Assembly (NCBI GenBank): GCA_023403375.1
Contig: JAEYEN010000024.1
Location: forward strand, 1 to 43,404
Reading direction: 5' to 3'
DNA from: Bacillota bacterium
GTDB lineage: Bacteria; Bacillota; Clostridia; Christensenellales; Borkfalkiaceae
DNA length: 43,404 nucleotides
Shown here: positions 12,139 through 43,404 of the stretch, piece by piece
Position numbering within the stretch: position 1 is the stretch's first letter
Layout: each line of letters opens with the position of its first letter
Notes under the pieces: generated by a model
Told to the model about the DNA's origin: nothing
The model's database searches: none
The model's input: only the letters and a program-made list of their open reading frames with translations
Made by a program: the position numbers and the translations under genes

Positions 12139-12420
12139 AAATTAAACCTTTGATACAGAGTAGTAACTGTTTATCGGACGTTAAGAGAGTTTTGGGTTGG
12201 TGCGACAAAACCGTTTATATTCAGCGAATGGACTGTTGAGGGCAAACGAACGGCAAACTTTTTGCCAAGTAGCAATTGACGGGTTGCGCCCGTTAAAGCG
12301 CATTGCGTATGATAGTACGTTAAAGAGAACGTGTAAACGTTAATTTGGGTGGCACCGCGGAATTATTCGTCCCAAAAGCAATTTTGCTTTTGGGATTTTT
12401 TGTTTTTTTTCGGAGGCAGT
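12139..12420 (+). promoter_or_regulatory. T-box riboswitch leader with Trp specifier (UGG)
   Basis: AGAGA/GGTGCGA stem I elements. Specifier loop GCGAA-TGG-A with UGG at 12229-12231. F-box-like CCCGTTAA. T-box sequence AATTTGGGTGGCACCGCGG (12342-12360). Terminator TCCCAAAAGCA-ATTT-TGCTTTTGGGA plus a T-run (12370-12420). Confidence 0.85.
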
Positions 12421-12673: not shown

Positions 12674-14047
12674 ATGGATAAGAAAATACCTTATAAAATA
12701 TATTTAGAAGAAAAAGAGATGCCGAAAAGTTGGTATAACGTCCGCGCGGATATGAAAGTTAAACCCGCGCCCCTTCTTAACCCCGCAACGGGCAAACCCG
12801 CCACGCTTGAAGAACTTTCTCACGTTTTCTGCAAAGAACTTGCGGAGCAGGAATTGAACAACGACGACGCTTATATCGAAATTCCCGAAGAGATAAGGGA
12901 TTTTTACAAAATGTATCGTCCGTCTCCGTTGGTGAGAGCGTATTGCTTGGAGAAAAAGTTGGGCACGCCCGCGCACATTTACTATAAATTTGAAGGAAAC
13001 AACACTTCCGGTTCGCACAAACTCAACAGCGCGATTGCGCAGGCTTATTACGCTAAAAAAGAAGGTCTTACGGGAGTTACCACCGAAACGGGCGCAGGAC
13101 AGTGGGGCACGGCGCTTTCCATGGCTTGCTCTTACTTCGACTTAAAATGCGACGTGTTTATGGTAAAGTGTTCTTACGAACAAAAGCCTTTCCGTCGTGA
13201 AGTTATGAGAACTTACGGCGCGAACGTTACCCCCTCGCCTTCTATGACGACGGAAATAGGTAAAAAAATAAACGCGGAATTCCCCGGAACTTCGGGTTCT
13301 CTCGGTTGCGCTATATCGGAAGCGGTTGAGAAAGCGGTTACCACGCCCAACACCAGATACGTTTTAGGCTCCGTTTTAAGTCAGGTTCTTTTGCACCAGT
13401 CGATAATCGGATTAGAAACCAAAGCCGCATTCGACAAGATTGGCGTTAAGCCCGATATTATTATCGGTTGCGCAGGCGGCGGCTCCAACCTTGGCGGTCT
13501 TATCTCTCCCTTCGTCGGCGAAATGTTAAGGGGCGAAGCGAAATACGACATTATTGCGGTTGAACCTGCTTCTTGTCCGTCGCTTACACGCGGTAAATAC
13601 GCTTACGACTTCTGCGATACGGGTAAAGTTTGTCCGCTCGCTAAAATGTACACTCTCGGCAGTTCGTTCATTCCTTCCGCTAATCACGCAGGCGGATTAA
13701 GATACCACGGTATGAGTTCGGTTGTTTCCGAACTTTACGACCAAGGCTATCTGACCGCGCGCTCCGTAGAACAGACGGAGGTTTTCAAAGCGGCGGAAGA
13801 GTTTGCAAGAGTTGAAGGTATTCTCCCCGCACCCGAAAGCAGCCACGCTATCAAAGTTGCGATAGACGAAGCGCTTAAATGCAAAGAAACGGGCGAAGAA
13901 AAGAACATCGTTTTCGGCCTTACCGGCACGGGCTATTTCGATATGGTTGCATACAACAAGTATAACGACGGCGTTATGGGCGACTACATTCCCACCGACG
14001 AAGAAATTAAAAAGAGTCTTGATAAACTCCCCGTCGTAAACAAATAA
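12674..14047 (+). CDS. trpB: TrpB2-type tryptophan synthase beta-like PLP enzyme (stand-alone)
   Basis: 457 aa, the long TrpB2 form. PLP-lysine motif GSHKLNSA and GGGSN loop. AAAGGAG ribosome-binding site. No trpA adjacent. Confidence 0.9.
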   Translation: MDKKIPYKIYLEEKEMPKSWYNVRADMKVKPAPLLNPATGKPATLEELSHVFCKELAEQELNNDDAYIEIPEEIRDFYKMYRPSPLVRAYCLEKKLGTPAHIYYKFEGNNTSGSHKLNSAIAQAYYAKKEGLTGVTTETGAGQWGTALSMACSYFDLKCDVFMVKCSYEQKPFRREVMRTYGANVTPSPSMTTEIGKKINAEFPGTSGSLGCAISEAVEKAVTTPNTRYVLGSVLSQVLLHQSIIGLETKAAFDKIGVKPDIIIGCAGGGSNLGGLISPFVGEMLRGEAKYDIIAVEPASCPSLTRGKYAYDFCDTGKVCPLAKMYTLGSSFIPSANHAGGLRYHGMSSVVSELYDQGYLTARSVEQTEVFKAAEEFARVEGILPAPESSHAIKVAIDEALKCKETGEEKNIVFGLTGTGYFDMVAYNKYNDGVMGDYIPTDEEIKKSLDKLPVVNK

Positions 14048-26149: not shown

Positions 26150-26661
26150 ATCAAGCCCGCTTTTCGCCTTTTGTTTTTTCTTTTATATCCTTTACTTTTT
26201 TAACGTTTTCTTTTTTAGAAAACAAAAAAAATATAAACTGTCAAATAAATTATCGTCCTGCCCTTGTTAATTGAATAATAGTCTTACCACCGCCACCCTT
26301 GTTTAAAAGGTAGTTTTTAGCGCGATCGCTAATTAACGATGAAGTTACGCTAACCACAAACTGTTTGTGTTCGTCCATAATGTAAAACCAAAATTGTTAT
26401 TTGTTTATAAAAATATATATTTTATAAAAATATATGTGCAGAAAGAATTATACGCTTTCTGTTCCATGATAGCAATCGTTTATCAAACTTTTATTTTCCG
26501 TCGACACCTTTTCCTTAAATTATACTGCCTGATTGCGCTTGACCGCTTAGGTGTTTTTTTATACTTGTCGGTCACTACAAAATAGTATAGTGCCAGCATC
26601 TTTTTATAACGAAGTAAATGGTTTCATACTGCCTTTTTTTTAAAACAAAAGTTTATATTGT

Positions 26662-26902
26662 TTCTTTGCCCCCGACTTTTTCCACCCACAAAATATTTTT
26701 TGTAGATTGTTTTGTCGTAAAAGTTTTGTCATTTTTTCCATAGACACACTTTTTATAAGTAACTATTTTCATCTCACTTGCCAATCAAACCAAAATATTA
26801 TTTTTTTTCCTTACCCCAGCTTTTACTATGAATATAATATTTTTTGTAAACTGCTTTGTCGTAAATATTTTCGTACATTTTTCCACAAATACTCTTTTTT
26901 AT
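26662..26902. repeat. Two tandem copies of a ~95-bp element, period 144 bp
   Basis: ATATTTTTTGTA anchors at 26693 and 26837. Flanking blocks TTTGTCGTAAA, CATTTTT(T)CCA and CCCC(C/A)G(A)CTTTT are conserved. A 1-nt indel breaks any shared reading frame. Confidence 0.7.
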
Positions 26903-27007
26903 GTTTTTTTCTCAAATATTTTGTTTTAATATAATCAATATAGAAGATATGCTATTTTTTAGCAAAAAAACAGAGAAAGACACTACTAAACATAGTGCCT
27001 TTGTTTT

Positions 27008-27038
27008 TAATAAAAAAGGAGCGTTTTGTTAACGCTCC
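27008..27038 (-). terminator. Rho-independent terminator of the 27336/27029 gene pair
   Basis: Minus strand GGAGCGTT-AACAA-AACGCTCC-TTTTTT. The stem includes the stop codon. Confidence 0.75.
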
Positions 27039-27793: not shown

Positions 27794-28354
27794 TTATGCG
27801 CCATATTTGTTTTCGCCAAAATTTACGAAAGCGCTTTTAACATATTCCATTATGCCTTCTGAAATAACTTCCGCCATTTTATATACGAGATTCAGTCTTG
27901 TAAGATTAAACAAATTATAATTCTTTATAGACTTAGTCGCAACCACGCCTATTATACTTATATCCCCCAACACACCCAGATTCTTATTTAACCCCAAACC
28001 GGGTTTTAGTCCCTTATCTATAATCTTGATTACACCAACGTCATCTGCATCGCCAACGGCAGCGTCAATAGCAATTACAATAGAATTCGGGTGCATTATT
28101 TTCAGATAATCTTTCGCGTAAGACACTTCTTTTGCGGTAATCGGGCAATTTAACGTGCCATAAATAAACGCGTCAAAGTTATTTTTACGCAAAAAAGTAC
28201 CCACAAGCGGCCCCAGACTGTCGCCCAACACCAAATCGCTGCCAACACACACAATAATCGGTTTTTTATTATCACCATTATATTTCAATAACGATTGAGC
28301 GATTCCGTTTTTAGCAAACTCGTTAAACATATTAAAACTATATAAATTTTCCAT
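27794..28354 (-). CDS. yyaC: YyaC-family putative sporulation protease
   Basis: Motifs KPIIVCVGSDLVLGDSLGPLVG and AIDAAVG. I chose the start at MENLYSF. A hairpin terminator (27766-27805) overlaps the stop. Confidence 0.8.
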   Translation of the reverse strand: MENLYSFNMFNEFAKNGIAQSLLKYNGDNKKPIIVCVGSDLVLGDSLGPLVGTFLRKNNFDAFIYGTLNCPITAKEVSYAKDYLKIMHPNSIVIAIDAAVGDADDVGVIKIIDKGLKPGLGLNKNLGVLGDISIIGVVATKSIKNYNLFNLTRLNLVYKMAEVISEGIMEYVKSAFVNFGENKYGA

Positions 28355-28437
28355 ATATAAGCCACCCACAATTTTTTATATTTTTATACCCTCTTTTTAC
28401 CATAATTATACGTCTATCACATAAATCCCTATTGTTT

Positions 28438-28453
28438 TGTTTCACGTGAAACA
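28438..28453. other. parS site 1 (perfect consensus)
   Basis: TGTTTCACGTGAAACA, a 16-bp perfect palindrome matching TGTTNCACGTGAAACA. Confidence 0.85.
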
Positions 28454-28470
28454 TCTCTTTTTACTCAAAT

Positions 28471-28486
28471 TGTTTCATGTGAAACA
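28471..28486. other. parS site 2 (one mismatch)
   Basis: TGTTTCATGTGAAACA. Confidence 0.75.
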
Positions 28487-28639
28487 AAAACTTTTTCAAA
28501 CACCAAAAAATACAAAAGCGCAACATAAAAATGTTATATTTTTATTGTTTTTATGCATAAAATCGGTCAAAAATATCATAATTTATTTTCAAAAACACAA
28601 CAGAAATCCTTTGTCCGATGAATTTTTCTAAAAAACAGC

Positions 28640-28655
28640 GGTTTCACGTGAAACA
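28640..28655. other. parS site 3 (one mismatch)
   Basis: GGTTTCACGTGAAACA. Confidence 0.8.
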
Positions 28656-29576
28656 AAACAGTGTAAAATTATATATTATTAAAAATAAAAATCAATTTTT
28701 TGCGCATTATCAAAATTGATTAATGATAAAACAATAAACAGATAAATATGAAATTTTAGCAAAAAATATCTTTTTGCCACACAGAATAAAGCCTATTTTT
28801 GGTCGGAAAAATTCATGCCCCATTCTGTCTCAGAGCGTTAAAATCGATATTTTTAAATAATGTTTTGTTGGTACAAATAGTTGTATTGGTTGCCAAATCA
28901 ATGCTATTATGCATAAAAATACGTTGTTTTTTGTGAATTGAATATTGTTTTTGTTTTTCTATTAACTTTTTTGCGTTGCTGTCTGAAATGTAAGTTTAAT
29001 CTAAAAAATTATCGCGCCAATCTGCGTTTTAAATTATAGGTGTTAAATTTTTTTGGCGCAATTAGCGTAAAAATGGTTTAATTCTGAAACGCAGTATAAA
29101 ACGTTGCGTGTCTTATGCTGTTTTGTAGTTATAGGTTTTATTGTAGTTAAAACTATATGTCTGCACGTGTACAAAAAGAAAAAATATATTAAAACACATT
29201 GATTTTTCGCAAAAACGTGCGGTGCATATATGATAATCGTGTTTATTTATATTAAAAGCCGTATATTAAATGCTTTATAAGTGCATACCCGATAGAAAAG
29301 TAAGTCTACTGAAATCAGTGTTGAATAGTGCGCGTTTGTATAATAACGCCGTGTATTATATTTGGCGCAACACTTACAAAACTTAAAAGCGCATTTATAT
29401 TTAAAATGGTTGGTGTAAATAGTTAAAATACTATTAAATAATTGGCGTATAATATAAAACGCGGCAAAAATTTTTTGCACTTATAATAAAAGCGCCGTTT
29501 TAATATAAAGCGCATAATAATATTATATCTTTTGAGCGCAAAGATATTTTTTTAAGCGCTTGTTCGGTTTTGGGTT

Positions 29577-31769
29577 TTTTGTATATTTTGTACAATAATT
29601 GATATTTGTACAAAAACCACAATTAGCTCAACAACCGAATACAGATAATACTAATAGTGTTTTATATAAAAACGCTCCGCTTTTGGTCTGACAGGCTTAA
29701 AACATACAAGCATATGCCCGCCTTATTGGCGGCAAGAATTATTTTTATTTTTTGTACAAAAAAATAATTTTGTATAAAATTGAATATAAAATTTATTCGT
29801 ACTACAAAATACATTTCGCATTGTTATTTTTAAAAAATTTAGTAAAAAACATAGGTTGCAAACTAAGAAATAAAACATTGTGGGAGAAGTTATTTGGTAT
29901 TATTTACGTTAAACGATACCACTAACACATATTTATTCTGCGTTTTGGAAAAGTTAAAATCAAAAACGAAATCCAAAATTAAAAATATATTTGTACAAAA
30001 GTTTTTATTGTACAAAAAGTAAGTTGTTAAGAAAAGAATTTATTAACCGTATTGTTTTTTAAATTTAATCAGTTTATTTAACGTCTAAATAATTTTGAAC
30101 AAATTCGGTTTTTTGTACAAAACTTCGAAATATATTAACTTAATGTAAGACAGTCGGATATTTTATATATAACTCTAAAATATAATTTTTATAATATTGC
30201 ACGATTGCACGCGGCATTAATTTTAATATCAAAAACTAATTGTTGAACAAAAAGTCATTTTTGTATTAAAGTATGTTTGCAGAATTTAATATAACTTTGT
30301 TTTATGTTTGAAAAAACTTCACTGTTTTGTATTTAATTAACCCCTACGTTCAGAGTTAAAGTTTTTAATTAAATTTTATTTTACAAAAATACATTTTGAA
30401 CAAAACTACAATTTTGTACAATACTAGTATTAAGGTATGAAAAATTGTATTTACGTATGGCAATCTGAAATTTAAAAACTTATTTTATATCAAACGGCTC
30501 TTGCTAAGCGTTTTATAGTGTTTTATTAAAGTTTTGTATTTTTTACTAATAAAATTACAAGCACTGTTTTACGTTTAGCGTTTTGTTTTTTTGGTTGACA
30601 TTTTATACAAAAATATTATTTTGTACAAAATTAGTATTGAAGTATGGTAAAAAGAAATTAAATAGTATTTAAGGTTAAAAATCCTTGCAGAATGGTTTAT
30701 TCTTCTATTCTCGCATTATTTATTATTAAAATTGCGTGTAAAGTTAAACGGTGTAAATTCTGTTTATTTGTTTGGTATTTTGAACAAAACAGTAATTTTG
30801 TACAAAAATGAAACTTGCAATAAATTAATGATGGCGGCAGAGCAGCCATGGGGAAGCGGTTTTTTGCGGCTTTTTTAGGAAACAGTAGGGTAATAATCGT
30901 AAATATACTTTCTAAAATAATTTTTATGTTTTGCCTTTTTTCGGGAAACAATCAGATAAATTGCAATTACATATTACAAATAAAGAAATAAATATCTATA
31001 AAACCGTTGTTATCTGAGATTTTACCGCCGCTTTGCCGCATATATTTCTGCTCTGTTTTTTTGCATTTTATCCTTGCTTTTTATTTTTGTTCTTTACTTT
31101 TGTCTATTTCTTGCCGCCAAATACTTTTTTATGAGTTTTTTCGGCGCGGAACGCAACGAATATAAAAAACTCAAAAGTCAAACAAAAATTAAGACGAAAA
31201 AACACGGCGTTCACGCTTACCGATTAACCCAAAAGGATTAAAATATAAACCCAACACGACTACCAAGCGACAAAATATTTGAACAAAAAAAGATTTTTGT
31301 ATAAAAATATAAAAAAATTAAAGGAGTTTTTTGTAAAGAAATATTTAAACTGCGCAAAAAACAAGACGTTTCTATACTTGTAATGGAATTTTATTGAACA
31401 AAGTTGTCCTTTTGAATGGATGTTTGTATAAAAACAAACTAGCAGTGTATTAAAAAAATCTTTTCGATTTACCGATAAGTTTTTACAAAAAAGGAAAAAC
31501 CCATAAACAATATACGCTAAAATTGAACAACGAATGATATTTGAACAAAATAATATATGGTTGTCTTTGGTTATAATTTTCGGCGCATTTTTAATGGCGT
31601 TTACAACCAAGTCGGCGGGCAGAATTGGCGCTAAATTCTTTATGCGAAGGCAGTTATAATTTAGTTTATCTTTTAGTTACTATTTTGACGAAAGCATAGT
31701 TGTCTTAAAAAGTAAATTTGCGAAGTTTTGCGGTTTTTGGTTTTTATACAAAAATAGGATTTTTATATA
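29577..31769 (+). repeat. Dispersed array of >=12 paired TTTTG(A/T)ACAAAA boxes with an 18-bp intra-pair offset
   Basis: Core hexamer starts: 29589/29607, 29753/29771, 29992/30009, 30096/30114, 30244/30262, 30397/30415, 30604/30622, 30781/30799, 31280/31298, 31395/31413, 31524/31542, 31745/31764. Confidence 0.85.
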
Positions 31770-32224
31770 AAAATGCGTGTTTACCCAATACGTATTTACA
31801 AATTGCAGTTTTTTATGAGAAATGTGCGCCGCTTTTACGTTGCCCGACGTTTAGTGCGAAGTATTTAATCTTTCCGCCGTCTTGCTTTTTATTGTTCGTT
31901 TTATAAGTTTAATTATCCATTGTGCACACTGCCACGACGTTTATTGCGCCGACGGTTTTACGGAATAAAGATTTGCGGCAAAAAAATAAATTATTTATTG
32001 TGTTTTTTGCTTTTTTGGTGTATACTATATAATGTTTAAGGTTTTTTAAATATTTATATGTTATATTTAATAAAATAATCTTGATAACCGCTTTTTACTG
32101 CGGTTTTTGGGAAAAGAACTGAAAATGCGATTTTTTATTTACGATTTATCGAAAAAGTAAACGACGCATATCGACGCATATTAAATTAACATATAAAATT
32201 TAGAAAAATAAGGAGAGCAAAAAT

Positions 32225-34468
32225 TTGAAGACTAGAAGTTCTAAAACATTCTGGATAATTTTGGTTATCGGTTTGGCACTCGCCGTCGGTATAACTATTT
32301 TTTCTTCCAGATGCACGGGAAAAACAAGCGTCAATACTTCTGAATTTGACGAACTTGTTCAGGTTCTGGCCGATGACGGAACAAATCAGTTCGCTTATGC
32401 GGACATTAAGGACGACGCAAAACTTGTATCCATAAAGAGCAAATTAGAAAAATATTCCGACTACAATTTTAAGTTAAAAGACGTTGTGTTTAACAATTAC
32501 GTTGTTAATTTTGAAATTTTCAGAGTGGATTCGGAAGGAAAGGAACTCGCACTGGTTTCGTTTACCACTAATTACAGCAGAAGTGCGGACGTCGTTCTCG
32601 AATTACAATCAAAACTTGCTGCGGCAAACGTAAACTATACCTATACCGACCCCAACGCGGGTTCGATTTGGTCGTCTATTCTCCCGCTTTTGGGATATCT
32701 TGTAATTGCGGTTGTATTCTTCCTTTTGATGATGCAGACGCAAGGCGGAACGAAAGGCGCGATGAATTTTGCGAAAACCAATGCGAGAGTAAACCACAAT
32801 ATAAAGGTAAGATTTTCGGACGTTGCCGGTGCCGAAGAAGAAAAGGCGGAACTTGCCGAAGTCGTGGACTTTTTGAAAAACCCGACCAAGTTTTCGCAAC
32901 TCGGCGCAAAAATTCCGAGAGGCGTATTGCTTGTAGGCCCTCCCGGAACGGGCAAAACACTGTTTGCAAAAGCGGTTGCCGGCGAAGCGGGCGTTCCGTT
33001 CTTTTCGATAAGCGGCTCGGACTTTGTTGAAATGTTTGTCGGCGTGGGCGCGTCCAGAGTAAGAGATTTATTTGACCTTGCCAAAAAGAATATGCCCTGT
33101 ATCGTGTTCATCGACGAAATCGACGCGGTAGGTCGTCAGCGTGGCGCCGGACTTGGCGGCGGTAACGACGAAAGAGAGCAGACTCTTAACCAACTCCTTG
33201 TTCAGATGGACGGTTTTGAAACCAACGACGGCGTTATCGTTATGGCGGCAACTAACCGTGCGGACATCTTAGACCCCGCGCTTATGCGCCCCGGCAGATT
33301 CGACCGCCAGATTTACGTAAACGTTCCCGACGTTAAGGGCAGAGAAGCGATACTCAAAGTACACGCGAGAAATAAACCGCTTGCACAGGACGTTAACTTT
33401 AAAACCGTTGCGAGAATGACCAGCGGATTTTCGGGCGCGGATTTAGAGAATCTGCTTAACGAAGCGGCTATCCTTGCCGCACGCGCAAACAGAAAATGTA
33501 TTACTAACAAAGACCTTTACGAAGGCATAAATAAAGTACTGTTAGGTCCGCAGAAGAAGAGCAGACTCGTTACCGAAACCGATAAGAGAATAACCGCTTA
33601 TCACGAATCGGGCCACGCGATACTTGCAAGGCTTCTTCCGCACTGCGACCCCGTACACGAAGTTTCTATTATACCGCGCGGTCAGGCGGCAGGCTACACG
33701 ATGACAAGACCCGAAAACGACGACAACCACCTGACGAAAGCCAAACTTTTAGACGATATCGTTATGACGCTTGGCGGCAGAGTGGCGGAAGAAATTATTA
33801 TAAAAGATATTTCGGCAGGCGCTTCGGGCGATATACAAGCCGTCAGCAAACGCGCAAGGCTTATGGTTACCGAATGGGGTATGAGCGAAAAAGTAGGCCC
33901 TATTTCCTACGGTTCCGACAAAGAAATATTTATCGGCAGAGATATGTCTTCGCACGTTACGTATAGCGAAGAAACCGCCGCGCTTATCGACAGAGAAGTT
34001 CAGGAAATAGTAGAAGAGGCTTTGGCAAAAGCCAGAAAACTTTTATCCGAACACAAACCCTTGCTTGACGTTATGGCGAGAGTTTTAGTGGAAAGAGAAA
34101 CCATTTTCTCCGAAGAAGTCGATATGATTATGGACGGAAAATCGGTTGAAGAAGTTATTAAATTTATGGACGAAAACGAACGTACTCTTGCCGAAAACCC
34201 CTTTGGCAGAAAGTCCGTTATCGTAACCGAAAAAAGTTACGAAGCGTCTGATAATAATTCGGTTGGTAATTCCCAAAATTCCGCAAAGGTAGGGGAAGCG
34301 CACGATAAAACGCCTTCTTTAAGCGACGATTCCGCAGACGGTAAAGATAAAACCGAAAGCAATAAGGATAAAGCCGCTTTAAATTCGGACGATAAAGCCG
34401 AACAAAAAAACGCTAAAAAAAGCGACGGCAAAACCGATAAAAAGACCGACGACAAAGACAAAAATTGA
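32225..34468 (+). CDS. ftsH: ATP-dependent zinc metalloprotease FtsH
   Basis: 747 aa with a TTG start 7 nt after AAGGAGAG. Two TM helices, Walker [13 protein letters not shown] region and HESGHA zinc motif. Lys/Asp-rich C-terminal tail. Confidence 0.93.
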
Positions 34469-34578: not shown

Positions 34579-35352
34579 ATGGGAAAAATTATTGCTTTTT
34601 CTAACCAGAAAGGCGGCGTAGGTAAAACCACAACCTGCGTTAATATGGCGGCTTATCTTGCAAACATGGGCAAAAAATGCCTTATCGTGGACCTGGACCC
34701 GCAAGGCAACGCGACTACGGGCTTGGGCTTTTCCAAATCGGAAGAAAAAAATTCCGTCTATAACGTTATGATAGACGATATGCCCATTGCGGACGCGGTT
34801 GTTAAGACTTCCGTCGAAAAACTCGATATTTTGCCGTCAAACATAAACTTGGCAGGCGCGGAAGTGGAACTCGTTTATATAAAAGACAGAGAACACGTTC
34901 TTAAAAAAGTGCTTGAAAAAGCCAGAAACTTTTACGATTTTATTGCGATAGACTGTCCGCCGTCGTTAGGGCTTTTAACGATAAACGCGCTTGCTGCTGC
35001 CGATACGGTAATTATTCCTATACAAAGCGAATATTACGCAATGGAAGGGTTAAGCCAACTTATGAACACCATAAAACTCGTTGTAAAACATCTTAACCCC
35101 AACCTTAAAATAGAGGGCGTTGTGCTTACGATGAACGATAACCGCGCGATAATTTCCAGACAGATTTCGGCGGAAATAAGAAAGTTCTTCGGAAAACGCG
35201 TTTACGACACGGTTATTCCCAGAAATATCAGGCTTTCGGAAGCGCCGAGCCACGGCGTTCCGATTATGCTCCACGACACCAAATGTACGGGCGCAAAAGC
35301 CTATCTCGCTCTTACAGAAGAGTTTTTAAGCCGTCAGCCGAAAAAGGCGTAA
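34579..35352 (+). CDS. soj: Chromosome partitioning ATPase ParA/Soj
   Basis: 257 aa. Deviant Walker A NQKGGVGKTTT. Confidence 0.92.
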   Translation: MGKIIAFSNQKGGVGKTTTCVNMAAYLANMGKKCLIVDLDPQGNATTGLGFSKSEEKNSVYNVMIDDMPIADAVVKTSVEKLDILPSNINLAGAEVELVYIKDREHVLKKVLEKARNFYDFIAIDCPPSLGLLTINALAAADTVIIPIQSEYYAMEGLSQLMNTIKLVVKHLNPNLKIEGVVLTMNDNRAIISRQISAEIRKFFGKRVYDTVIPRNIRLSEAPSHGVPIMLHDTKCTGAKAYLALTEEFLSRQPKKA

Positions 35353-35574: not shown

Positions 35575-36480
35575 ATGAAAAACAACAGAGGATTAGGAAA
35601 AGGGCTTTCCGCATTATTTTCGGAAACAGAAGAAGACTACGGTAAAAGTTTATTGTTTGACGAGAAAGAAATTTCCGCCAAAGAAAACGTTACCGAAATT
35701 GACATTAGTTCTATTTTCGCAAACCCCAATCAGCCGAGAAAGGTTTTCGACCAGACCGCACTCAGCGAACTTGCGGCTTCTATCAGCAAGCACGGCGTTA
35801 TTATGCCTATCATCGTAAATAAGAGCGGCGACAGGTATATGATAATTGCCGGCGAAAGAAGATTCCGCGCGAGCAAACTTGCAGGGCTTTCTAAAATCCC
35901 CGCTATCATTAAAACCTATAACGAACGTCAGATAAAAGAAATTTCGCTTATAGAAAACTTACAGCGAGAGGACTTAAACCCCATAGAAGCGGCAACCGCT
36001 ATGCGTTCTCTTATGGACGATTACGGATTAACGCAGGAAGATTTGGCGGACAGAATAGGTAAGTCCAGACCTGCCGTTGCCAACACGTTAAGACTATTAT
36101 CTCTCGCGCCCGAAGTTATAAAATTAGTGGCAAACGGAGATTTGTCCGCAGGGCACGCAAGGGCGTTGATACCCGTTCCGCAAGCGGACCAGATAAAAAT
36201 TGCGCAAGGTTCGGTTAAAGACGGATGTTCCGTAAGGGATATAGAGAAAAAAGTTAAAGATTACTTTATGCCGCCCGAAGAAAAAGCCAAAAAGAAAGCG
36301 CGTATTGAACTATCGGCAGAACTTAAAGAACTCGTAAGCGATATGCAACGCGTTTTAGGAACAAAGGTAAACGCCATAGGAAACGACAAAAAAGGCAGAA
36401 TTTACATAGATTATTACACGCGGGACGATTTGGACAGAATAGCCGAATTCTTAGAACTCGTTAAAAATCACAAAAACTAA
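35575..36480 (+). CDS. spo0J: Chromosome partitioning protein ParB/Spo0J
   Basis: 301 aa. N-terminal RGLGKGLSAL, CTP-binding GERRFRAS box, and HTH LTQEDLADRIGKSRPAVANTLRLL. Confidence 0.9.
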   Translation: MKNNRGLGKGLSALFSETEEDYGKSLLFDEKEISAKENVTEIDISSIFANPNQPRKVFDQTALSELAASISKHGVIMPIIVNKSGDRYMIIAGERRFRASKLAGLSKIPAIIKTYNERQIKEISLIENLQREDLNPIEAATAMRSLMDDYGLTQEDLADRIGKSRPAVANTLRLLSLAPEVIKLVANGDLSAGHARALIPVPQADQIKIAQGSVKDGCSVRDIEKKVKDYFMPPEEKAKKKARIELSAELKELVSDMQRVLGTKVNAIGNDKKGRIYIDYYTRDDLDRIAEFLELVKNHKN

Positions 36481-38351: not shown

Positions 38352-39167
38352 TCAGTTGTCTTTTTTAAGACTGTTTCCTAAATAAGTGCCGAATGCGGAA
38401 GGCGTTTTTCTTTTTTCCGCTTCGCCGTAAGATTTCTTAAATCCGCCGCGATTTCCGCCCTTAAAGCCTCTTTTGTCGCCGCGTCTGTTATTATGCCTGT
38501 CGTCTTTTCCGTGTCTTCTGTCGCTGTTTCTGCCTGCATTATAGGGTTTAGAGTATTCGTCTAAATCGTTAGGAACGATAACTACGTATCTGTTGGGTTC
38601 TTTGCCTTCGCTCTTCGTCGTAACCGTTTCGCTGTTGGAAAGGGCGGTGTGGATAATTCTTCTTTCAAAAGGAATCATCGCTTCTAAAATTACTTCTCTT
38701 CTCATTTCTGTCGCTTTTTCTTCTAATTTATGAGCGAGTTTGATAAGAGTTTCTTCTCTTCTTTCTCTGTAATTTTCGCAATTTACGGTAACTTTTTCGT
38801 ATTCTTTTTTGCCGATGTTAAGCGCCGCGCCTGCCAAAGTTTGGAGAGCGTCTAACACTTCGCCGCGGTAACCGATAACTTCGGAAGATTTTTCCGCTAT
38901 AACGTTGATTATAGGTTCTGCTCCTTCGATGAGTTCGGCTTTTGCGTTTACGTCTAAAAGTTTTAATACTTCTTTAACGAAATCCAACGCTTTTTCGTTT
39001 CCGTCGGGTTTTTTCTCTATACTGATAACCGCTTTTCCTTTAAGTTTTCCGAAAAGACCTTTGGTCGGTTCTTCAAGAACCGTTATCGTGGAGTTATTTT
39101 CGTTTAATCCCGTTTCTTCGTAGGCTGATTTTATCGCTTCTTCAACCGTTTTTCCTGTAAATTCCAT
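38352..39167 (-). CDS. jag: RNA-binding protein Jag/KhpB (Jag_N + KH + R3H) with an RG-rich tail
   Basis: 271 aa. N-terminal MEFTGKTVEEAI, R3H-like ERRIIHTAL, and a C-terminal RRGDKRGFKGGNRGGFKK tail. Confidence 0.88.
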   Translation of the reverse strand: MEFTGKTVEEAIKSAYEETGLNENNSTITVLEEPTKGLFGKLKGKAVISIEKKPDGNEKALDFVKEVLKLLDVNAKAELIEGAEPIINVIAEKSSEVIGYRGEVLDALQTLAGAALNIGKKEYEKVTVNCENYRERREETLIKLAHKLEEKATEMRREVILEAMIPFERRIIHTALSNSETVTTKSEGKEPNRYVVIVPNDLDEYSKPYNAGRNSDRRHGKDDRHNNRRGDKRGFKGGNRGGFKKSYGEAEKRKTPSAFGTYLGNSLKKDN

Positions 39168-39199
39168 TATAAACCTCCTGCGCGACTTCGCGCTTTTAC

Positions 39200-40708
39200 T
39201 TATTTCTTTCTGCCACGCAGATATTTCTTTCCGCCGTTAATAAAATCGGGCTTTTCTTCTTCTTTTTTCTTTTTGCTCTTCTTTTCGGGCTGCGGTTCTT
39301 CTTTCGGAATATAAACTCTGCCCCTTATTTTTTCGGGTTCTTTATTGCCTTCTTTTTTCTTAAATCTTAAATCTATAATATAGTTTATCAATAGGGTAAA
39401 GGCAATGGTTATAACCTGAGATAATATCATGTAGATAGAGAACGCCGCGGTATACATAAACGCGAATACAGCCATCAATATAGGCATCATCCACATCATT
39501 ATCTTTTGCGTCTGCGCGCCTTGTCCGTCTACCGTTTGAAGTTCCATTGCCGCTTTCTGGCTCTTACTTAAAACAAACTGTGCCAAAAGCGAAATGCCTG
39601 CCGTTATAATTGCAAGAATAAAGTAACCGTTCGCTTCGGTTGTCTGCGTTTCTAAATCGGCGATAAGAAGTTTATAAGTATCTTCGCTCATATTAGAAAC
39701 TTCGCCGTCTTTGGTTTTGTATTCGTGAACGGACTTGAATTTTTCCCACGAACTTTCTACGGGGTGAGCAAGGGGGCTGTCCGCCACCCAGATGTTTTTA
39801 ACCCACAAGAAACTGCTGTTGTCCGCTTTATACTGTTTGCCCGCCATAACGCTGCCTACGTTTTGTAAAAACGTAAGTTCGTCAATCTCGGTGCCTTCGG
39901 TATATTCGTCGTAATTTTTATCTTCTATTTTTAAGAAGTTATTTTTTTCGGATAAAGATTTAACGTCCGGCTGATTTACGGATAACTCTTTTATTTTGCC
40001 GCTAATCAGAGAATAAACGCCGCTTCCCGAAGAATAATAATTTTCTCCGTCTACGGTATAGAATTGTTTATACTTAACGTAACCGTTAGAAGAATTTATA
40101 ATATAGTAATTGCCGTTTTCGCCTTCGGAACCTTTTTCTACGTTGTAAGTAATTCCGTTAGAATTAAAGTTTCCGTCCGCGTCTAATTCTTTATTTACTA
40201 TCTGATAATTATCGTAAACAAGTTTTCCTTCTTTTTCGTTATATTTAACAACTTCGTCGTCAATTTCCATACCGGCGTAAATAGCGTTGTTATACGCAAC
40301 GCTCATATCGTAAAAATACTTTTTATTGACGTATTTAGAATAGCCGTTGAATGCGGAAATAGCCACTATAAATATTACAAGCGTAACGATAGTGGGAAGG
40401 CAGGCGCCGAACATAGAATAACCGTTCTTTTTATAGAGCGCCATCATTTTCTGATTATATAATTGTTTATCGTTTGCGTACTGTTTTTGAAGTTTTTCTA
40501 AGTCAGGGCGCATTTTTTCCATAATAAGCGAGTTTTTACGCATCTGTATTCTGGAAATAGCGTCAAACGGAATGGTTATAAGTTTAAGAAAAACCGTAAA
40601 CAATATAACGCCCCACGCAATGGAAGAACAAATTCCGACTATCCACGCGATAACCGAAACCAACCCTTCAATCTGGGGTGCGACGAACAAGATTTCTGTA
40701 ATATTCAT
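39200..40708 (-). CDS. yidC: Membrane protein insertase YidC/Oxa1 family with a ~240-aa internal insertion
   Basis: 502 aa. Conserved core segments (MRPDLEKLQKQY, GCLPTIVTLVIF, MMWMMPILMAVF) are separated by a long Asn/Tyr-rich soluble segment. Confidence 0.85.
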   Translation of the reverse strand: MNITEILFVAPQIEGLVSVIAWIVGICSSIAWGVILFTVFLKLITIPFDAISRIQMRKNSLIMEKMRPDLEKLQKQYANDKQLYNQKMMALYKKNGYSMFGACLPTIVTLVIFIVAISAFNGYSKYVNKKYFYDMSVAYNNAIYAGMEIDDEVVKYNEKEGKLVYDNYQIVNKELDADGNFNSNGITYNVEKGSEGENGNYYIINSSNGYVKYKQFYTVDGENYYSSGSGVYSLISGKIKELSVNQPDVKSLSEKNNFLKIEDKNYDEYTEGTEIDELTFLQNVGSVMAGKQYKADNSSFLWVKNIWVADSPLAHPVESSWEKFKSVHEYKTKDGEVSNMSEDTYKLLIADLETQTTEANGYFILAIITAGISLLAQFVLSKSQKAAMELQTVDGQGAQTQKIMMWMMPILMAVFAFMYTAAFSIYMILSQVITIAFTLLINYIIDLRFKKKEGNKEPEKIRGRVYIPKEEPQPEKKSKKKKEEEKPDFINGGKKYLRGRKK

Positions 40709-40709
40709 A

Positions 40710-40973
40710 TTAGTATACCCATTTTAAAACACTTTTTTTATCGGGAACTTTATCGAAGCCGCCTTTTGACCACGGCATACATCTGATTATTCTTAACGTA
40801 CCTAAAAATATACCTACTATTATGCCCCTTTTTAATATTGCTTCAATCATATACTGAGAGCAAGAGGGGATAAATCTGCACGTTCCCTTTGATAAGAATT
40901 TCTGATAAAATTTAATCAGCGTTATCGGAAGAAGTTTTAACAAACGGTGAATTTTCTTTAATATAATTTTCAT
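40710..40973 (-). CDS. yidD: Membrane protein insertion efficiency factor YidD
   Basis: 87 aa. Motifs CRFIPSCSQYMIEAI and GGFDKVP. Confidence 0.85.
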   Translation of the reverse strand: MKIILKKIHRLLKLLPITLIKFYQKFLSKGTCRFIPSCSQYMIEAILKRGIIVGIFLGTLRIIRCMPWSKGGFDKVPDKKSVLKWVY

Positions 40974-41292
40974 CGTTAAAAAAACCCCCTTTTTTTAAAA
41001 GATACCCCATATCTTTTTTAATATCTTCCAATCTATACTCTTCTTTTACTTTCGGTATAAAAACAAAAAAGAAGTCTTGCCTTAAAAAAGGCAAAAAACT
41101 TCTGAAACTTTCTCTTAAATATCTCTTGATTTTGTTTCTTTTAACGCTGCCGCCGTGTTTTTTTCCGACGGCAAACCCAACTTTCAACGAATTTTGTTTA
41201 ATATATAAAAGAGTGAGATTATTAGAAAATAATCTCTTTCCTTTACCGAAAACTAAATTAAAATCTTTTTCTCTTTTTAATCTGTAATCCAA
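40912..41292 (-). CDS. rnpA: Ribonuclease P protein component
   Basis: 126 aa with a TTG start. Motifs LKREKDFNLVFGKGKR and GFAVGKKHGGSVKRNKIKR. Overlaps yidD by 62 nt. Confidence 0.85.
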   Translation of the reverse strand: MDYRLKREKDFNLVFGKGKRLFSNNLTLLYIKQNSLKVGFAVGKKHGGSVKRNKIKRYLRESFRSFLPFLRQDFFFVFIPKVKEEYRLEDIKKDMGYLLKKGGFFNDENYIKENSPFVKTSSDNAD

Positions 41293-41318
41293 CTTTAAAT
41301 ACCGAAAATCAGAAAAAT

Positions 41319-41453
41319 TTAAGCGGAAAGTTTATGACGACCTTTATTTCTGCGTCTTTTAAGAACGTTCTTTCCCGAACGTGTTTTCATTCTTTCTCTG
41401 AATCCGTGAACTTTGCTTCTTTGTCTTTTCTTAGGCTGGTAAGTCTGTTTCAT
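41319..41453 (-). CDS. rpmH: 50S ribosomal protein L34
   Basis: Not in the ORF track because it is under 60 aa. Hand translation: [50 protein letters not shown] ribosome-binding site upstream. Confidence 0.92.
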
Positions 41454-41536
41454 AATTATCTCCTTAAAACGCCTGCCGCGTATTTTTTAATTTTATTTTT
41501 TATTTTCTTTTTCGGCAAAAAACCGCCGACTTATTT

Positions 41537-41565
41537 ATTTTATTGTTTTTTTAACCTTTTGTCAA
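41537..41565 (-). promoter_or_regulatory. Sigma-A promoter of rpmH-rnpA
   Basis: Minus strand TTGACA (41560-41565), 17 nt, TAAAAT (41537-41542). Confidence 0.55.
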
Positions 41566-41570
41566 TTAAA

Positions 41571-42671
41571 TTAAGAGTTTATTCTTACCGGTAACACCAG
41601 ATAAGAGAAGTTTTTATCGCCGATAGGGGATAAAATACAGGGGTCTATCGCGGAATTAAGTTTTATAGTTACGAATTCTTCGTCTATAATTTTCAAAAAG
41701 TCCATAATATACTTTCCGTTAAATGATATATAAAGGTCTTTTCCGTTTAACGTTATTCCTATATTTTCGTTAACGTTACCTATTTCCGATTTAGCCGAAA
41801 CCGTCATATAATCTTCGTTTATATCGAAGTTTACAAAATTATATCTGTCGTTTTTAGCGACGATAGAAGCCCTTTCTATACTATTTAAAAGCGCGGTTTT
41901 ATTAACCGTTACAACGTTATTGAACGTTGTGGGAAGAATATGGTTATAGTTGACGAAATCGCCTTCTATAAGTCTTGATATAAGCGTAGTGTTTTCAACT
42001 TCTATAAACAACGAATTATTTTGTAAAATAACTTTAAGTTTTTCTTCGTCTTTATCCAAAAGCCTTGTTATCTCTTGAAGAGTTCTAGACGGAATAACCG
42101 CCTTAAAATCTCCGCTCGCTTCCGTTTCTTTCTTTAAAACCGCCATTCTGTAACCGTCTAACGAAACGACCGTTAAAACTCCGTCCTTAACTTCAAACAA
42201 GCAACCCTTTAATATAGGTCTGCTGTCGTCAAGCGCGCAGGCAAAAACCGTTCTTTCTATAATCTTCTTAAATTCTTTCTGGGAAAGAATAAAATAGTTC
42301 CCGTCGGTTGTCTTTTCTATCACGGGATAGTTTTCCGCAGGATACACCTGCAATTCGCTTGAAGAATCGGAATATTTAATCTGCAACTGCCCGTCTTCTA
42401 TTTTGCAAAGTTCTATCTGTTCGTTCTGTAACTTTTTAACGAATTCCACAAAATATTTACCTACAACGACGGTTTCGCCTTCCATAAGCACTTCCGCTTT
42501 AATGGTTTTTTCGATAGTAATTTCCATATCGGAAGCAAGAAGGGTAAGCGTTTCGCCTTTTGCGGTAATCTTTATACCTTCTAAAACAGGGTTAGAAGAT
42601 TTTACAGGCAACGCTTTGCTTACTTTAAGCACCGCGTCAGATAAATCCAAACCGTCGCAAATCAATTTCAT
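41571..42671 (-). CDS. dnaN: DNA polymerase III beta sliding clamp
   Basis: I chose the start at MKLICDG (ATG 42671, GGAG 9 nt upstream). This gives 366 aa with typical three-domain length and an N-terminus L..AV..V..A.P. Confidence 0.9.
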   Translation of the reverse strand: MKLICDGLDLSDAVLKVSKALPVKSSNPVLEGIKITAKGETLTLLASDMEITIEKTIKAEVLMEGETVVVGKYFVEFVKKLQNEQIELCKIEDGQLQIKYSDSSSELQVYPAENYPVIEKTTDGNYFILSQKEFKKIIERTVFACALDDSRPILKGCLFEVKDGVLTVVSLDGYRMAVLKKETEASGDFKAVIPSRTLQEITRLLDKDEEKLKVILQNNSLFIEVENTTLISRLIEGDFVNYNHILPTTFNNVVTVNKTALLNSIERASIVAKNDRYNFVNFDINEDYMTVSAKSEIGNVNENIGITLNGKDLYISFNGKYIMDFLKIIDEEFVTIKLNSAIDPCILSPIGDKNFSYLVLPVRINS

Positions 42672-42779
42672 AAAAATTTTCTCCGATAAAATAAAGTAAA
42701 AATAATTTTTTGTAAATAATATATATACGGACATATTATATAATATATAGAATTAAAAAGCAAGTTTTTTCGACTTTAA

Positions 42780-43180
42780 TAGAGAATATAGTTTAAGGGA
42801 ATTTTTTTAAAAAAAAGGACGGAATTTTTTGTTATTTTTTTATTTTTATTTATTTTTTAAATTTAAAATATAAGTATTATTCTTATTAACTAGTGGAAAA
42901 GTTGATAACTCAAAAATTATCAGATAAAACCTTATAAAAATCATCTTGATAAAAAGTTAAATTTTTGTGGAATAAACATTGATAAAATAAAAATAAAGTG
43001 GATAACTTTTTTAAACGAAAAGAAAAAGTAAAAAAAAGGGGACAAATTAAAATAAAATAATCGTAAAAATAAGAAAATCCCGAAAAGTTGATAAAAATGT
43101 AAAATAAAAGTTGATAACTTTTTAGTTACTTACAAAACAAAAAATAATTGATAAAAACAAATAACCGTGTTATAATTTTC
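42780..43180. other. oriC-like region: co-oriented DnaA-box variants plus an AT-rich unwinding-type stretch
   Basis: Boxes: AGTTGATAA at 42900, 43086 and 43109; AGTGGATAA at 42997; TGTGGAATA at 42966; ATTGATAAA at 42978; CTTGATAAA at 42945; AATTGATAA at 43146. A stretch above 90% AT lies at 42800-42890. Confidence 0.55.
43148..43176 (+). promoter_or_regulatory. Sigma-A promoter placing the TSS at the rsmG ATG (leaderless candidate)
   Basis: TTGATA (43148-43153), 17 nt, TATAAT (43171-43176). The ATG is at 43183 and has no SD. Confidence 0.45.
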
Positions 43181-43182
43181 TT

Positions 43183-43404
43183 ATGAAAAGTTTGAAAGAG
43201 ATACTTGCCGAAAACGAAATAGTTTTATCGGAAGACAAATTAAAAAAGTTTGAAAAATACTACGAGATTTTAGTTTTCTATAACGAAAAATTCAACATAA
43301 CCGCAATTACCGAAAGAGAAGAAGTGTATATAAAACATTTTTGCGACAGTCTGATAGGGTTAAAATATTTTAACTGTGAAAATGTTGATAACTTAATAGA
43401 CGTC
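43183..43404 (+). CDS. rsmG: 16S rRNA (guanine527-N7)-methyltransferase RsmG/GidB, 5' partial (runs off the window)
   Basis: Hand translation: MKSLKEILAENEIVLSEDKLKKFEKYYEILVFYNEKFNITAITEREEVYIKHFCDSL. This matches the RsmG N-terminal pattern (NLTAI..EE...KHF.DSL). Confidence 0.85.
   Translation, partial: MKSLKEILAENEIVLSEDKLKKFEKYYEILVFYNEKFNITAITEREEVYIKHFCDSLIGLKYFNCENVDNLIDV

Follow-up and report, generated by a model that had tools for sequence, protein, structure and literature searches.

A parS-adjacent gene desert with an array of paired palindromic 12-mers in a Bacillota genome

Why does a compact bacterial genome carry 3855 bp of DNA without a credible gene beside its chromosome partition locus, and what does this DNA contain? 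The question is raised by contig JAEYEN010000024.1 of a Borkfalkiaceae MAG (assembly GCA_023403375.1). The window, meaning here the whole stretch of DNA that was analysed, is 43,404 nt long. The features of the locus are listed in Table 1.

The gap, its flanks and its counterparts in relatives

The first-pass annotation had described the region between yyaC and ftsH as a gene desert, and this description holds. Once ORFs of 120 aa or more are masked across the whole 1.27-Mb assembly, positions 28370-32224 form the largest uncovered gap, followed by one of 1850 bp. The GC content is 0.27, against 0.415 for the genome, and the four AT-richest of the 2083 scored 2-kb windows (GC 0.257-0.275) all lie in the desert region. 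The five ORFs of the first-pass annotation are present where it placed them. An SD-like tetramer precedes only two ORFs of at least 15 aa in the desert, and neither is convincing. Of the 47 stop-to-stop frames with 35 aa or more, none had a Pfam match above noise (best E=0.011). In tblastx of the desert against its own genome, only a 93-nt scrap of an ABC-transporter gene surfaced as coding homology. No Rfam 15 family reached its gathering score in 28370-32224, where a cut-off of E<=5 gave chance-level rows only. The desert is non-coding: beyond that scrap, neither a credible RBS-bearing ORF nor homology in any frame marked a coding or decayed gene. Among sequencing runs, no RNA run turned up with the desert words, and only two other DNA runs contain 5% of them, in a few identical short contigs, none of them bridging; a 198-nt contig is identical to 30236-30433, and a 259-nt contig to 31809-32067.

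Table 1. Features of the yyaC-ftsH interval and its flanks
Feature	Position	Strand	Basis or remark
yyaC (spore protease YyaC), left boundary	27794..28369	-	TIGR02841, E=3.2e-35, above curated cut-off
Three parS sites	28438..28655	.	sequence read, repeat family D17; 28438-28453 TGTTTCACGTGAAACA, 28471-28486 (one change), 28640-28655
Conserved block CCATTCTGTCTCAGAGCGTTAAAAT..ATTTTTAAA	28820..28858	+	alignment A1; ACAGAAT arm upstream at about 28786
GCGC islands (RGCGCAWA boxes) in AT-rich DNA	28960..29570	.	sequence read
11 clear bipartite modules TTTTGWACAAAA-N6(5)-TTTTGTACAAAA	29586..31772	+	all one orientation; starts 29586, 29750, 29989, 30093, 30241, 30394, 30601, 30778, 31277, 31521, 31742
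Module and flanks like promoter of 175-aa gene (C110 7901-7958)	29740..29793	+	79% identity, 58 nt
Three neighbouring units (30394, 30601, 30778), diverged tandem duplicates	30391..30830	+	repeat family D6
Scrap copied from intergenic stretch of contig C20 (1966-2057)	31164..31258	+	80% identity, E=9e-15
One disrupted module copy	31392-31434		total 11-12 modules
93-nt scrap from inside ABC-transporter gene (C75:345-2321)	31554..31646	+	86% identity, E=5e-24
Proximal ftsH promoter TTGTGT-N17-TATACT and conserved leader word (TTTAAGGTTTTTT)	31998..32050	+	sequence read
ftsH, right boundary	32225..34468	+	TIGR01241, 799 bits
soj	34579-35352		downstream of ftsH
parB	35575-36480		downstream of ftsH

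The desert does start with three parS sites, and the full site (GTTTCACGTGAAAC) is absent from the rest of the assembly. The 16-bp palindrome TGTTNCACGTGAAACA, together with the nearby parB, marks the first 290 bp as a partition site, but not the remaining 3.5 kb. The oriC-like region that had been placed 11 kb away was not borne out: dnaN lies at 41571-42734, but dnaA is on another contig (C74). The desert itself was also rejected as an origin or a datA-like locus. None of the 18 window matches to the DnaA box TTATCCACA (at most one mismatch) falls inside 28370-32224, no 600-bp window of the assembly exceeds three such boxes, and the clusters formed by the dnaA-upstream repeat TTRTAAACA single out no locus.

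The gene order yyaC (with or without one further gene)-parS-ftsH is kept in the congeners, usually with 0.4-1.3 kb from the previous ORF to ftsH. A cluster of 2-4 parS sites occupies the same interval in 41 of the 45 fetched genus loci. Absence from close relatives is what was found for the interior: 0/119 congeners share its sequence, with just three trivial matches of 32-73 nt. An expanded interval of 1.8-3.7 kb is present in 4/44 relatives (G076, 3.7 kb; G072, 2.8 kb; G015, 2.2 kb; G083, 1.8 kb); these expansions are unrelated and have no common motif, and the G076 equivalent has a GC content of 21%. Judged from these comparisons, the desert represents a conserved parS-to-ftsH regulatory interval that underwent a lineage-specific expansion.

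Several parts of this interval are conserved in the genus. The block at 28820-28858 was found in 36/45 loci, usually 380-680 nt upstream of ftsH, and lies on the ftsH strand in all of them but one (G001). In our own reading of the alignment, TTGnCA-N16/17-TAAAAT occurs within the block of several loci, and the block is possibly a promoter or operator reading towards ftsH. An RNA structure was considered for it and rejected: RNAalifold predicts no pairs, and in a hand-drawn helix of 14 bp the pairing amounts to 66%, covariation is weak, and 9-16 of 500 shuffles reach the observed measures. The GCGC-island zone is common in kind to the ftsH upstream regions of relatives, with GCGCAAAA in 22 of 35 block-to-ftsH intervals. 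The ftsH promoter of the relatives reads TTGTAT-N17/18-TATAAT, and the leader word TTCAAGGTT is found in 22/35 of them. Their ftsH upstream regions rarely contain the 12-mer word described below.

The module array and the 12-mer in the genus

The interior, earlier described as highly A/T-tract-rich, has more to it than such tracts: it holds a highly non-random array of bipartite modules. The window contains 53 copies of TTGWACAAAA (at most one mismatch); shuffled versions average 23.4 +/- 4.8, and none of 100 reached 53. The bipartite pattern gave 17 matches and its reversed control 0. The 12-mers (at most one mismatch) number 19 in the array and 68 in the other 1.27 Mb. The motif counts demonstrate, at the level of sequence, that 11-12 pairs of TTTTG-WW-CAAAA are retained. 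All modules share the orientation of ftsH (in the desert TGAACA occurs 8 times and TGTTCA 0 times), and their spacing is irregular, at 104-499 bp. The motif carries a mean information of 0.88 bit per position, and the flanks carry 0.19-0.26. The 12-mers are conserved, A/T positions included, while the 6-nt spacer embedded between them is not; the 12-mers therefore look constrained. The module variants TTTTATACAAAA and TTTTGTATAAAA represent G>A and C>T changes, as would be expected from neutral AT-biased decay.

Several familiar kinds of array were tried and rejected. A promoter array does not fit, since sigma-70-like sites are no more frequent than in shuffles (34 versus 35.1 +/- 6.4) and the modules are not followed by a conserved -10 at a constant distance. 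Terminators or other hairpins were discarded because the arm changes are non-compensatory (GAAC faces GTAC) and U-tracts are missing. The sequences downstream of the modules are unrelated save in the three neighbouring units, which speaks against sRNA paralogues or type I toxins; conserved tiny ORFs, as for a toxin array, were not found. Avoidance of a restriction site would not account for the word, as TGTACA is not avoided genome-wide (99 observed, 112 expected). A CRISPR array has a regular period with spacers of 25-75 nt; the module spacing is irregular, and TRF reported no long-period array. An exact-pattern scan of genome contigs (92 stretches) gave only single chance-like sites, as did the metagenome contigs among the at least 117 matches listed. 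The literature search with the word TTGTACAA gave cloning-primer matches only. The array is known from one contig of one MAG, as a one-off.

The word itself is spread more widely. Of 120 genus genomes, 37 contain the bipartite pair (at most one mismatch); the number of places per genome is 0-3, and the reversed control occurs in none of the 120. The genome studied here has six paired places, five of them inside the desert. By our own count, the 12-mer (at most one mismatch) lies within 300 nt upstream of spo0A in 23/30 loci. The typical arrangement there is TTTTGTACAAAA-TTCGACAAAT-ATTTTACAAAA, in which the 12-mer abuts a canonical 0A box (TTCGACA) in 10-bp phase; the in-phase word beside TTCGACA occurs upstream of spo0A in many of the 30 genus loci and also upstream of a gene for a 175-aa protein. 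In 13/30 promoters of the latter, the pair and a TCGACA box stand directly upstream of TTGACT-N17-TATAAT; a LexA box (CGAACAAATGTTCG) takes the same place in 15/30, and 2/30 have neither. In the genome studied here, the 175-aa protein is encoded at C110:8039-8554 and its native pair lies at C110:7911-7942, while the Spo0A DNA-binding domain is encoded at C47:1759-2502. Intermediate forms, TTCTACAAAA and TTCGGCAAAA, are found at the spoIIGA promoters. Taken together, these positions mark TTTTG-WW-CAAAA as a genuine cis-element of the whole genus, of which each genome has very few sites. As is characteristic of 0A boxes, the word itself is placed at Spo0A-controlled promoters in helical phase; the desert copies are not. 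The desert modules differ from the functional sites because each lacks an adjacent TCGACA box and promoter, and because the spacing is different, with a start-to-start distance within the module of 18 bp in the desert versus 20-21 bp at most native promoters.

Copies of the genome's own DNA in the desert

The alignments in Table 1 establish, as far as sequence identity can, that pieces of the desert originate from the genome itself by copying, tandem duplication and decay. The module at 29740-29793 is the probable founder copy of the array. The tandem units at 30391-30830 share 80% identity across 56 nt and 66% across 220 nt. The ABC-transporter scrap begins 3 nt past a module, and tblastn of the whole ABC protein recovered only this piece, 35 aa long. 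Ectopic copies of the promoter of the 175-aa gene, of the ABC gene fragment and of an intergenic piece landed here; units were then duplicated in tandem and decayed towards very low GC.

A xenogeneic origin, another suggestion of the first-pass annotation, is not supported, given these own-genome copies and the palindrome usage. ATTAAT occurs 3 times in the desert, against 8.7 +/- 2.6 in shuffles, and TTTAAA 8 times, against 22.9 +/- 4.3; the host genome avoids both words too. The desert has no phage match, and its plasmid matches are trivial, three in number and 56-60 nt long. Neither the foreign oligonucleotide usage nor the mobile-element genes or matches of a recently acquired island were found.

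Possible binders and competing explanations

No TTCGACA or TGTCGAA, the canonical 0A box, occurs anywhere in the desert. 0A boxes are known from multi-box promoters, and as sets from phi29/Nf phages and from oriC. According to excerpts of one study (PMC3485338), Spo0A contacts G2, C4 and G5 of the core TGTCGAA, a change of C4 or G5 each costs about 10-fold affinity in C. difficile EMSAs, and degenerate boxes are normal at Spo0A targets. An excerpt of another paper describes sets of 0A boxes in phi29-family phages (PMC2731898). The desert word resembles the 0A boxes in that the 10-mer TTGTACAAAA has T-rich and A-rich flanks and G2. Its TGTACAA differs in having neither C4 nor G5, which with G2 make up the three base-specific contacts, and the word, which occurs in pairs, forms a perfect palindrome of 12 bp. 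Two kinds of factor may read the word: Spo0A~P, for which it would be a weak box of the 0A type, or a distinct regulator that acts as a dimer. One candidate binder is the 175-aa protein itself. A recognisable DNA-binding fold was looked for in it and rejected: Foldseek against the PDB gave nothing at E<0.6, VIA-align gave generic helical hairpins only (Z<=9, residues 1-72) and no HTH-type match, and Pfam gave no sigma or HTH match in any of the 36 members. Weak leads are an Atlas feature score of 0.93 to DUF1492/Sigma70_r4_2 clusters, and a match of 3/36 members to phrog_36 'transcriptional regulator'. CodY was dropped as a binder, as no HTH_CodY was found in the 86%-complete MAG, and so was a second ParB/Noc, as a single ParB homologue was found in the assembly.

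The desert interior may be a cluster of binding sites, or a sink, for Spo0A or another partner; we regard this as the best reading, quite possible though somewhat short of probable. The array of about 22 predicted sites, adjoining parS and upstream of ftsH-soj-parB, would then act as a sink or a nucleoprotein patch for whichever factor reads this word at both spo0A and the 175-aa gene. A more elaborate version is a long shot. The word would be the operator of an SOS-inducible (LexA-box) phage-type regulator, the conserved, helical and so far undescribed 175-aa protein, acting beside the spo0A 0A boxes as a DNA-damage checkpoint on sporulation. The origin-proximal array would be a datA-like sink coupled to replication dosage, which would buffer this regulator or Spo0A~P and reset the threshold of sporulation entry.

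Binding-site clusters that titrate master regulators include datA of E. coli and the DnaA-box clusters of B. subtilis. Like them, the desert is non-coding and origin-proximal, and repeats one word beyond the need of any promoter. However, its word is not the DnaA box, and its palindromic pairs are irregularly spaced and confined to one species. Plasmid centromere or iteron arrays, such as F sopC and R1 parC, likewise contain about a dozen repeats of a short word in some 2 kb of non-coding DNA. These are regular tandem repeats beside their own partition or replication genes, whereas the desert has irregular spacing, heterologous spacers and no such gene nearby.

The main rival to the binding-site reading is that the desert is neutral junk, a tolerated dumping ground for ectopic scraps and tandem duplicates. 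A promoter fragment would have been duplicated there, and the 12-mers, of no consequence as binding sites, would be the part of it that decays most slowly. The GC content of 27%, and of 21% in the G076 equivalent, looks like mutational equilibrium, and unrelated expansions with no motif in common are found at the same place in four relatives. The scraps are obviously non-functional, the variants are of the kind that decay produces, and the modules lack the strong 0A box and the promoter of the native sites. Uniform neutral decay, however, does not predict that the 6-nt spacer is randomised while the 12-mers are kept, and five of the six paired operators of the genome amount to a large dosage for a site that otherwise occurs 0-3 times per genome; we consider neutral junk unlikely, if by no means far-fetched. 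Rather improbable is a long 5' leader or ncRNA running from the block at 28820-28858 to ftsH, with the modules as 12-bp A/U RNA hairpins or internal promoters. The block is on the ftsH strand in 35/36 loci and every module has this orientation; shuffled sequences fold less well than the windows that cover the modules (z=-6.5 at 29545, for example), and some modules are sigma-70-like (e.g. TGTACA-16-TAAAAT at 29753). Against this stand the non-compensatory arm changes, the hairpins without a following U-tract, the lack of enrichment of promoter-like sites, a -35/-10 spacing of 15 nt if TTGWAC and TACAAA of the module are used, and the lack of a matching Rfam family.

A remnant of foreign or mobile DNA is very improbable, whether as the replicon or iteron-bearing centromere of a plasmid or phage, as recombination sites arrayed in integron or Xer fashion, or as MITEs. 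The 12-6-12 architecture of the modules is similar to the core sites of tyrosine recombinases; the 'spacers' are heterologous, a scrap starts within 3 nt of a module, and the GC content is the lowest in the genome. Yet the motif is native to the genus, the host-specific palindrome avoidance extends to the desert, and database matches are confined to the three short plasmid hits. The window has no recombinase or Rep gene, and the sole tyrosine recombinase of the assembly (PF00589) lies on C81, with no similar site seen beside its gene. The first-pass annotation had favoured an obstacle-free, A/T-rich runway for ParB spreading or SMC loading, which now appears hardly credible. The assembly has a single parS cluster, and the desert lies right at it, upstream of soj-parB; enlarged AT-rich DNA lies at this locus in several congeners too. 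However, the modules are unrelated in sequence to parS, the interval is well under 1.3 kb in most of the 44 relatives, and ParB-CTP spreading and SMC loading have no known requirement for gene-free DNA. The extra 3 kb or so has no counterpart in 119 congeners, and is therefore not a conserved part of the partition machinery. The earlier reading stands in part: the desert is non-coding and begins at a genuine parS cluster, but neither a partition platform nor a xenogeneic origin is supported.

If the binding-site reading is correct and the array binds a sporulation regulator, the desert would be a natural transcription-factor sink, born of recent duplication beside the chromosomal centromere in a gut Firmicute with a small genome. 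Further, it would offer a handle on an undescribed, genus-wide cis-element and its regulon, including spo0A and the LexA-linked 175-aa gene, in uncultured bacteria. If the array binds nothing, the parS-ftsH interval would be a recurrent site of junk-DNA accumulation in compact genomes of 1-2 Mb, which bears on the gain and loss of non-coding DNA in reduced genomes.

The gene-free stretch upstream of ftsH

The source MAG (G000) comprises 1.27 Mb in 130 contigs (86% complete, 41.5% GC). When ORFs of at least 120 aa were masked across the whole assembly, the stretch between yyaC and ftsH (28370-32224, the desert) was the largest uncovered gap, with 3855 bp versus 1850 bp for the runner-up. Of the 2083 2-kb windows that were scored, all four with the highest AT content fall within it. 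The gene desert described in the first-pass annotation is thus confirmed, and the five ORFs listed there all exist, with no sign of coding. An SD-like tetramer was found upstream of only two desert ORFs of at least 15 aa. Pfam searches of 47 stop-to-stop frames gave nothing better than E=0.011, and a tblastx search for decayed genes against the rest of the genome returned a single 93-nt scrap. No Rfam families or tRNAs were found in the desert. The window is the whole of contig C128, for which support is limited to synteny on either flank and some short contigs of identical sequence from two other runs.

The desert is non-coding, as had been noted earlier, and it is not featureless: parS sites, a conserved block, GCGC islands, modules, and an ftsH promoter and leader are present. 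The three parS sites recognized earlier are genuine, and the full site was found at no second place in the assembly.

Features of the desert and its boundaries (window coordinates)
Feature	Position	Strand	Remarks
yyaC	27794-28369	-	left boundary of desert
Three parS sites	28438-28655		left end of desert
Genus-conserved block	28820-28858		right of parS cluster
Zone of GCGC islands	to about 29570		right of conserved block
Module array	29586-31772		11 clear and 1 disrupted TTTTGWACAAAA-N6-TTTTGTACAAAA, single orientation
Module with flanks	29740-29793		79% identity to C110:7901-7958
Scrap	31164-31258		80% identity to intergenic stretch of contig C20
Scrap	31554-31646		86% identity to internal piece of ABC-transporter gene on contig C75; 35-aa piece alone matches
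ftsH promoter and leader	31998-32224		right end of desert
ftsH	32225-34468	+	right boundary; soj then parB downstream

An oriC-like region had been placed 11 kb away, for which no confirmation was obtained: the window carries dnaN, whereas dnaA lies on contig C74 beside recF, and no canonical DnaA-box cluster was found anywhere in the assembly. The gene order of the origin region is unusual (window 38352-43404; C74:3364-6102). The dnaN gene is directly upstream of the rpmH region-rnpA-yidD-yidC-jag, co-directional, and gidB begins where the contig ends. On C74, dnaA and recF are arranged divergently, and the GTTATAAACAA repeat occurs three times between them. In a second AT-rich spacer of ~0.8 kb (26150-27029, GC 29-31%), a direct repeat of ~50 nt is present in two copies (26708-26754 and 26852-26899) at a distance of 145 bp; these include TTTTCCA(T/C)A words with weak DnaA-box likeness. 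There is also a T-box leader (123 bits) at 12141-12377, with a PLP-dependent enzyme gene (12674-14047) downstream.

The module array and its origin

Each module consists of two 12-mers (TTTTG-WW-CAAAA) with a 6-nt spacer, and the modules lie at intervals of 104-499 bp. The array is far above chance. The window has 53 occurrences of TTGWACAAAA with at most one mismatch, versus 23.4 +/- 4.8 in shuffles, and 12-mers with at most one mismatch number 19 within the 2.2 kb of the array versus 68 in the remaining 1.27 Mb. The bipartite pattern (at most two mismatches) gave 17 strand matches genome-wide, 16 of them on this contig; the reversed control gave 0. The mean information per position is 0.88 bit in the motif versus 0.19-0.26 in the flanks. 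Module likeness ends at 30 bp, except for three adjacent units, which are diverged tandem duplicates. Since the embedded spacer is randomised and the 12-mers are kept, the 12-mers appear to be under constraint.

The desert is species-specific and non-coding, built of own-genome scraps and tandem duplication. It contains the majority of the copies in this genome of an operator that is rare and occurs genus-wide. The promoter of a gene for a 175-aa protein (C110:8039-8554) was likely the founder of the array, because one module resembles it beyond the motif. The desert strongly avoids ATTAAT and TTTAAA, as the whole genome does; phage matches were absent and plasmid matches trivial. The desert is accordingly resident DNA and not a recent import. 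The earlier xenogeneic idea is not upheld, and a mobile or foreign remnant is very unlikely.

The whole assembly shows extreme avoidance of CTNNAG-type palindromes. Observed versus expected counts were 4 vs 498 for CTTAAG, 3 vs 142 for CTGCAG, 2 vs 67 for CTCGAG, 7 vs 190 for CTATAG, and 0 vs 2 for CCTAGG. ATTAAT is likewise avoided (30 vs 285). The pattern points to active restriction-modification systems that target these words.

The 12-mer in the genus and its candidate binders

The 12-mer is a cis-element native to the genus. Within 300 nt upstream of spo0A it was found (at most one mismatch) at 23 of 30 loci by hand count, usually as TTTTGTACAAAA-TTCGACAAAT-ATTTTACAAAA, ~108 nt ahead of the start codon. 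In this arrangement it adjoins a canonical 0A box (TTCGACA) at 10-bp phase, and a sigma-A-type promoter is just downstream. In G000 (spo0A at C47:1759), the 12-mers are at -202 and -97. The spoIIGA promoters carry TTCTACAAAA or TTCGGCAAAA, intermediate between the canonical 0A box and half of the 12-mer. The paired pattern (at most one mismatch) occurs in 37 of 120 genus genomes, at 0-3 places each, with 0 matches of the reversed control in all 120; of the six paired places in G000, the desert holds five.

The 175-aa gene, whose conserved product belongs to no known family, is present in 43 of 46 genus genomes. Among 30 genus loci (L347-L376; L347 is C110:7831-8554), 13 promoters carry, immediately upstream of TTGACT-N17-TATAAT, a TCGACA box and the paired TTTTGWWCAAAA operator with its 12-mers 20-21 bp apart. 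In 15 a LexA box (CGAACAAATGTTCG) takes the place of the pair, and two have neither; several pair-type genomes, including G000, have a LexA box further upstream. From these promoters, the gene looks SOS- and sporulation-linked.

On contig C36 (237-500, locus L025), a yfbR-like 5'-deoxynucleotidase gene has a ~200-nt G000-specific insertion between its RBS and the conserved promoter (TTGCGTCAAGC...TACAAT). The insertion contains a further pair (TTGAACAAAA) along with three copies of a AACNTTATCGATAA repeat; both insertion and motif are absent among the relatives listed.

Spo0A is one candidate binder. The 12-mer resembles the 0A box in its flanks and G2, and is in helical phase with canonical boxes; however, its core TGTACAA lacks C4 and G5. 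According to PMC3485338, degenerate boxes are usual among Spo0A targets, and a change at C4 or G5 costs ~10-fold affinity each. The perfect 12-bp palindrome in pairs also seems better suited to a dimeric regulator's operator than to a Spo0A site. A second candidate binder is the 175-aa protein, given that its own promoter contains a 12-mer pair. Its 167 homologues are all unnamed and without Pfam domains, and a Pfam search of 36 members gave no hit in any. The structure is confidently predicted as all-helical, with seven helices (pLDDT 88.7), and no informative PDB match was found. The sole, weak hints of DNA binding are its Atlas feature neighbours (0.93; DUF1492/Sigma70_r4_2 in a minority of members) and phrog_36 'transcriptional regulator' (3 of 36 members, best E=1e-4). 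CodY and a second ParB were not found in the G000 assembly.

The interval in relatives and possible roles

The collection holds 120 species genomes of the genus, including G000. The desert interior (28900-32000) was unmatched in the other 119, save three hits of 32-73 nt. The ftsH-upstream DNA of 44 relatives was fetched and scored jointly with G000 (45 loci). The parS sites are present at 41 loci, YyaC is upstream of ftsH in most, and the distance from ftsH to the preceding ORF (at least 100 aa) typically spans 0.4-1.3 kb. Expansions also occur in four relatives: G076 (3.7 kb, 21% GC), G072 (2.8 kb), G015 (2.2 kb), and G083 (1.8 kb). In G004, parS-like sites accompany an ORF-free stretch of 3.2 kb. 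These expansions lack the TTGTACAAAA word and have no common repeat except parS, so non-coding growth has recurred in the parS-ftsH interval, in a different form each time. The ORF-free G076 expansion (contig C3, locus L255) contains two diverged tandem copies of a ~120-nt element, ~1.9-0.4 kb upstream of ftsH. The element reads ...AAAATCAGAGGTATATAAACAAAAG...GACATATTTTGCTCGCGATGGAAAG... and might represent a small RNA or a riboswitch-like motif.

Several conserved parts are retained in G000. The block CCATTCTGTCTCAGAGCGTTAAAAT is found at 36 of 45 loci, as ~45 nt (CCATTCTGTCTCAGAGCGTTAAAATGACAATTTTTAAA) with an upstream ACAGAAT arm between parS and ftsH (window 28760-28866; loci L241-L280 and L018-L023). 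The GCGCAAAA boxes and the TTCAAGGTT leader word are each found in 22 of 35, and the ftsH promoter TTGTAT-N17/18-TATAAT is conserved among relatives. The block is on the ftsH strand, with G001 the sole exception, and has no Rfam match. Only 66% of its helix cells pair, so rather than forming an RNA hairpin it may serve as a distal promoter/operator (TTGnCA-N16/17-TAAAAT). An RNA-level role, in which a long ftsH leader would start at this block, is improbable.

Given the apparent constraint on the 12-mers, the desert may well act as a cluster of ~22 predicted binding sites, which would form a sink or a nucleoprotein patch adjoining parS and upstream of ftsH-soj-parB. We hold this reading tentatively. 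It is rather unlikely that the desert is plain junk, since spacers would not be expected to be randomised while the 12-mers are kept; this alternative keeps some weight because the desert pairs are 18 bp apart, not 20-21 as at the 175-aa gene promoters, and have no adjacent strong box or promoter. Moreover, their variants are G>A and C>T changes, as neutral decay predicts, and unrelated junk has grown at the same place in other species. A ParB/SMC platform beside parS, as proposed earlier, is extremely unlikely. Regulator-site clusters and titration loci are already known as a concept; what the desert would add is a new word in a new genomic setting, confined to one uncultured species.
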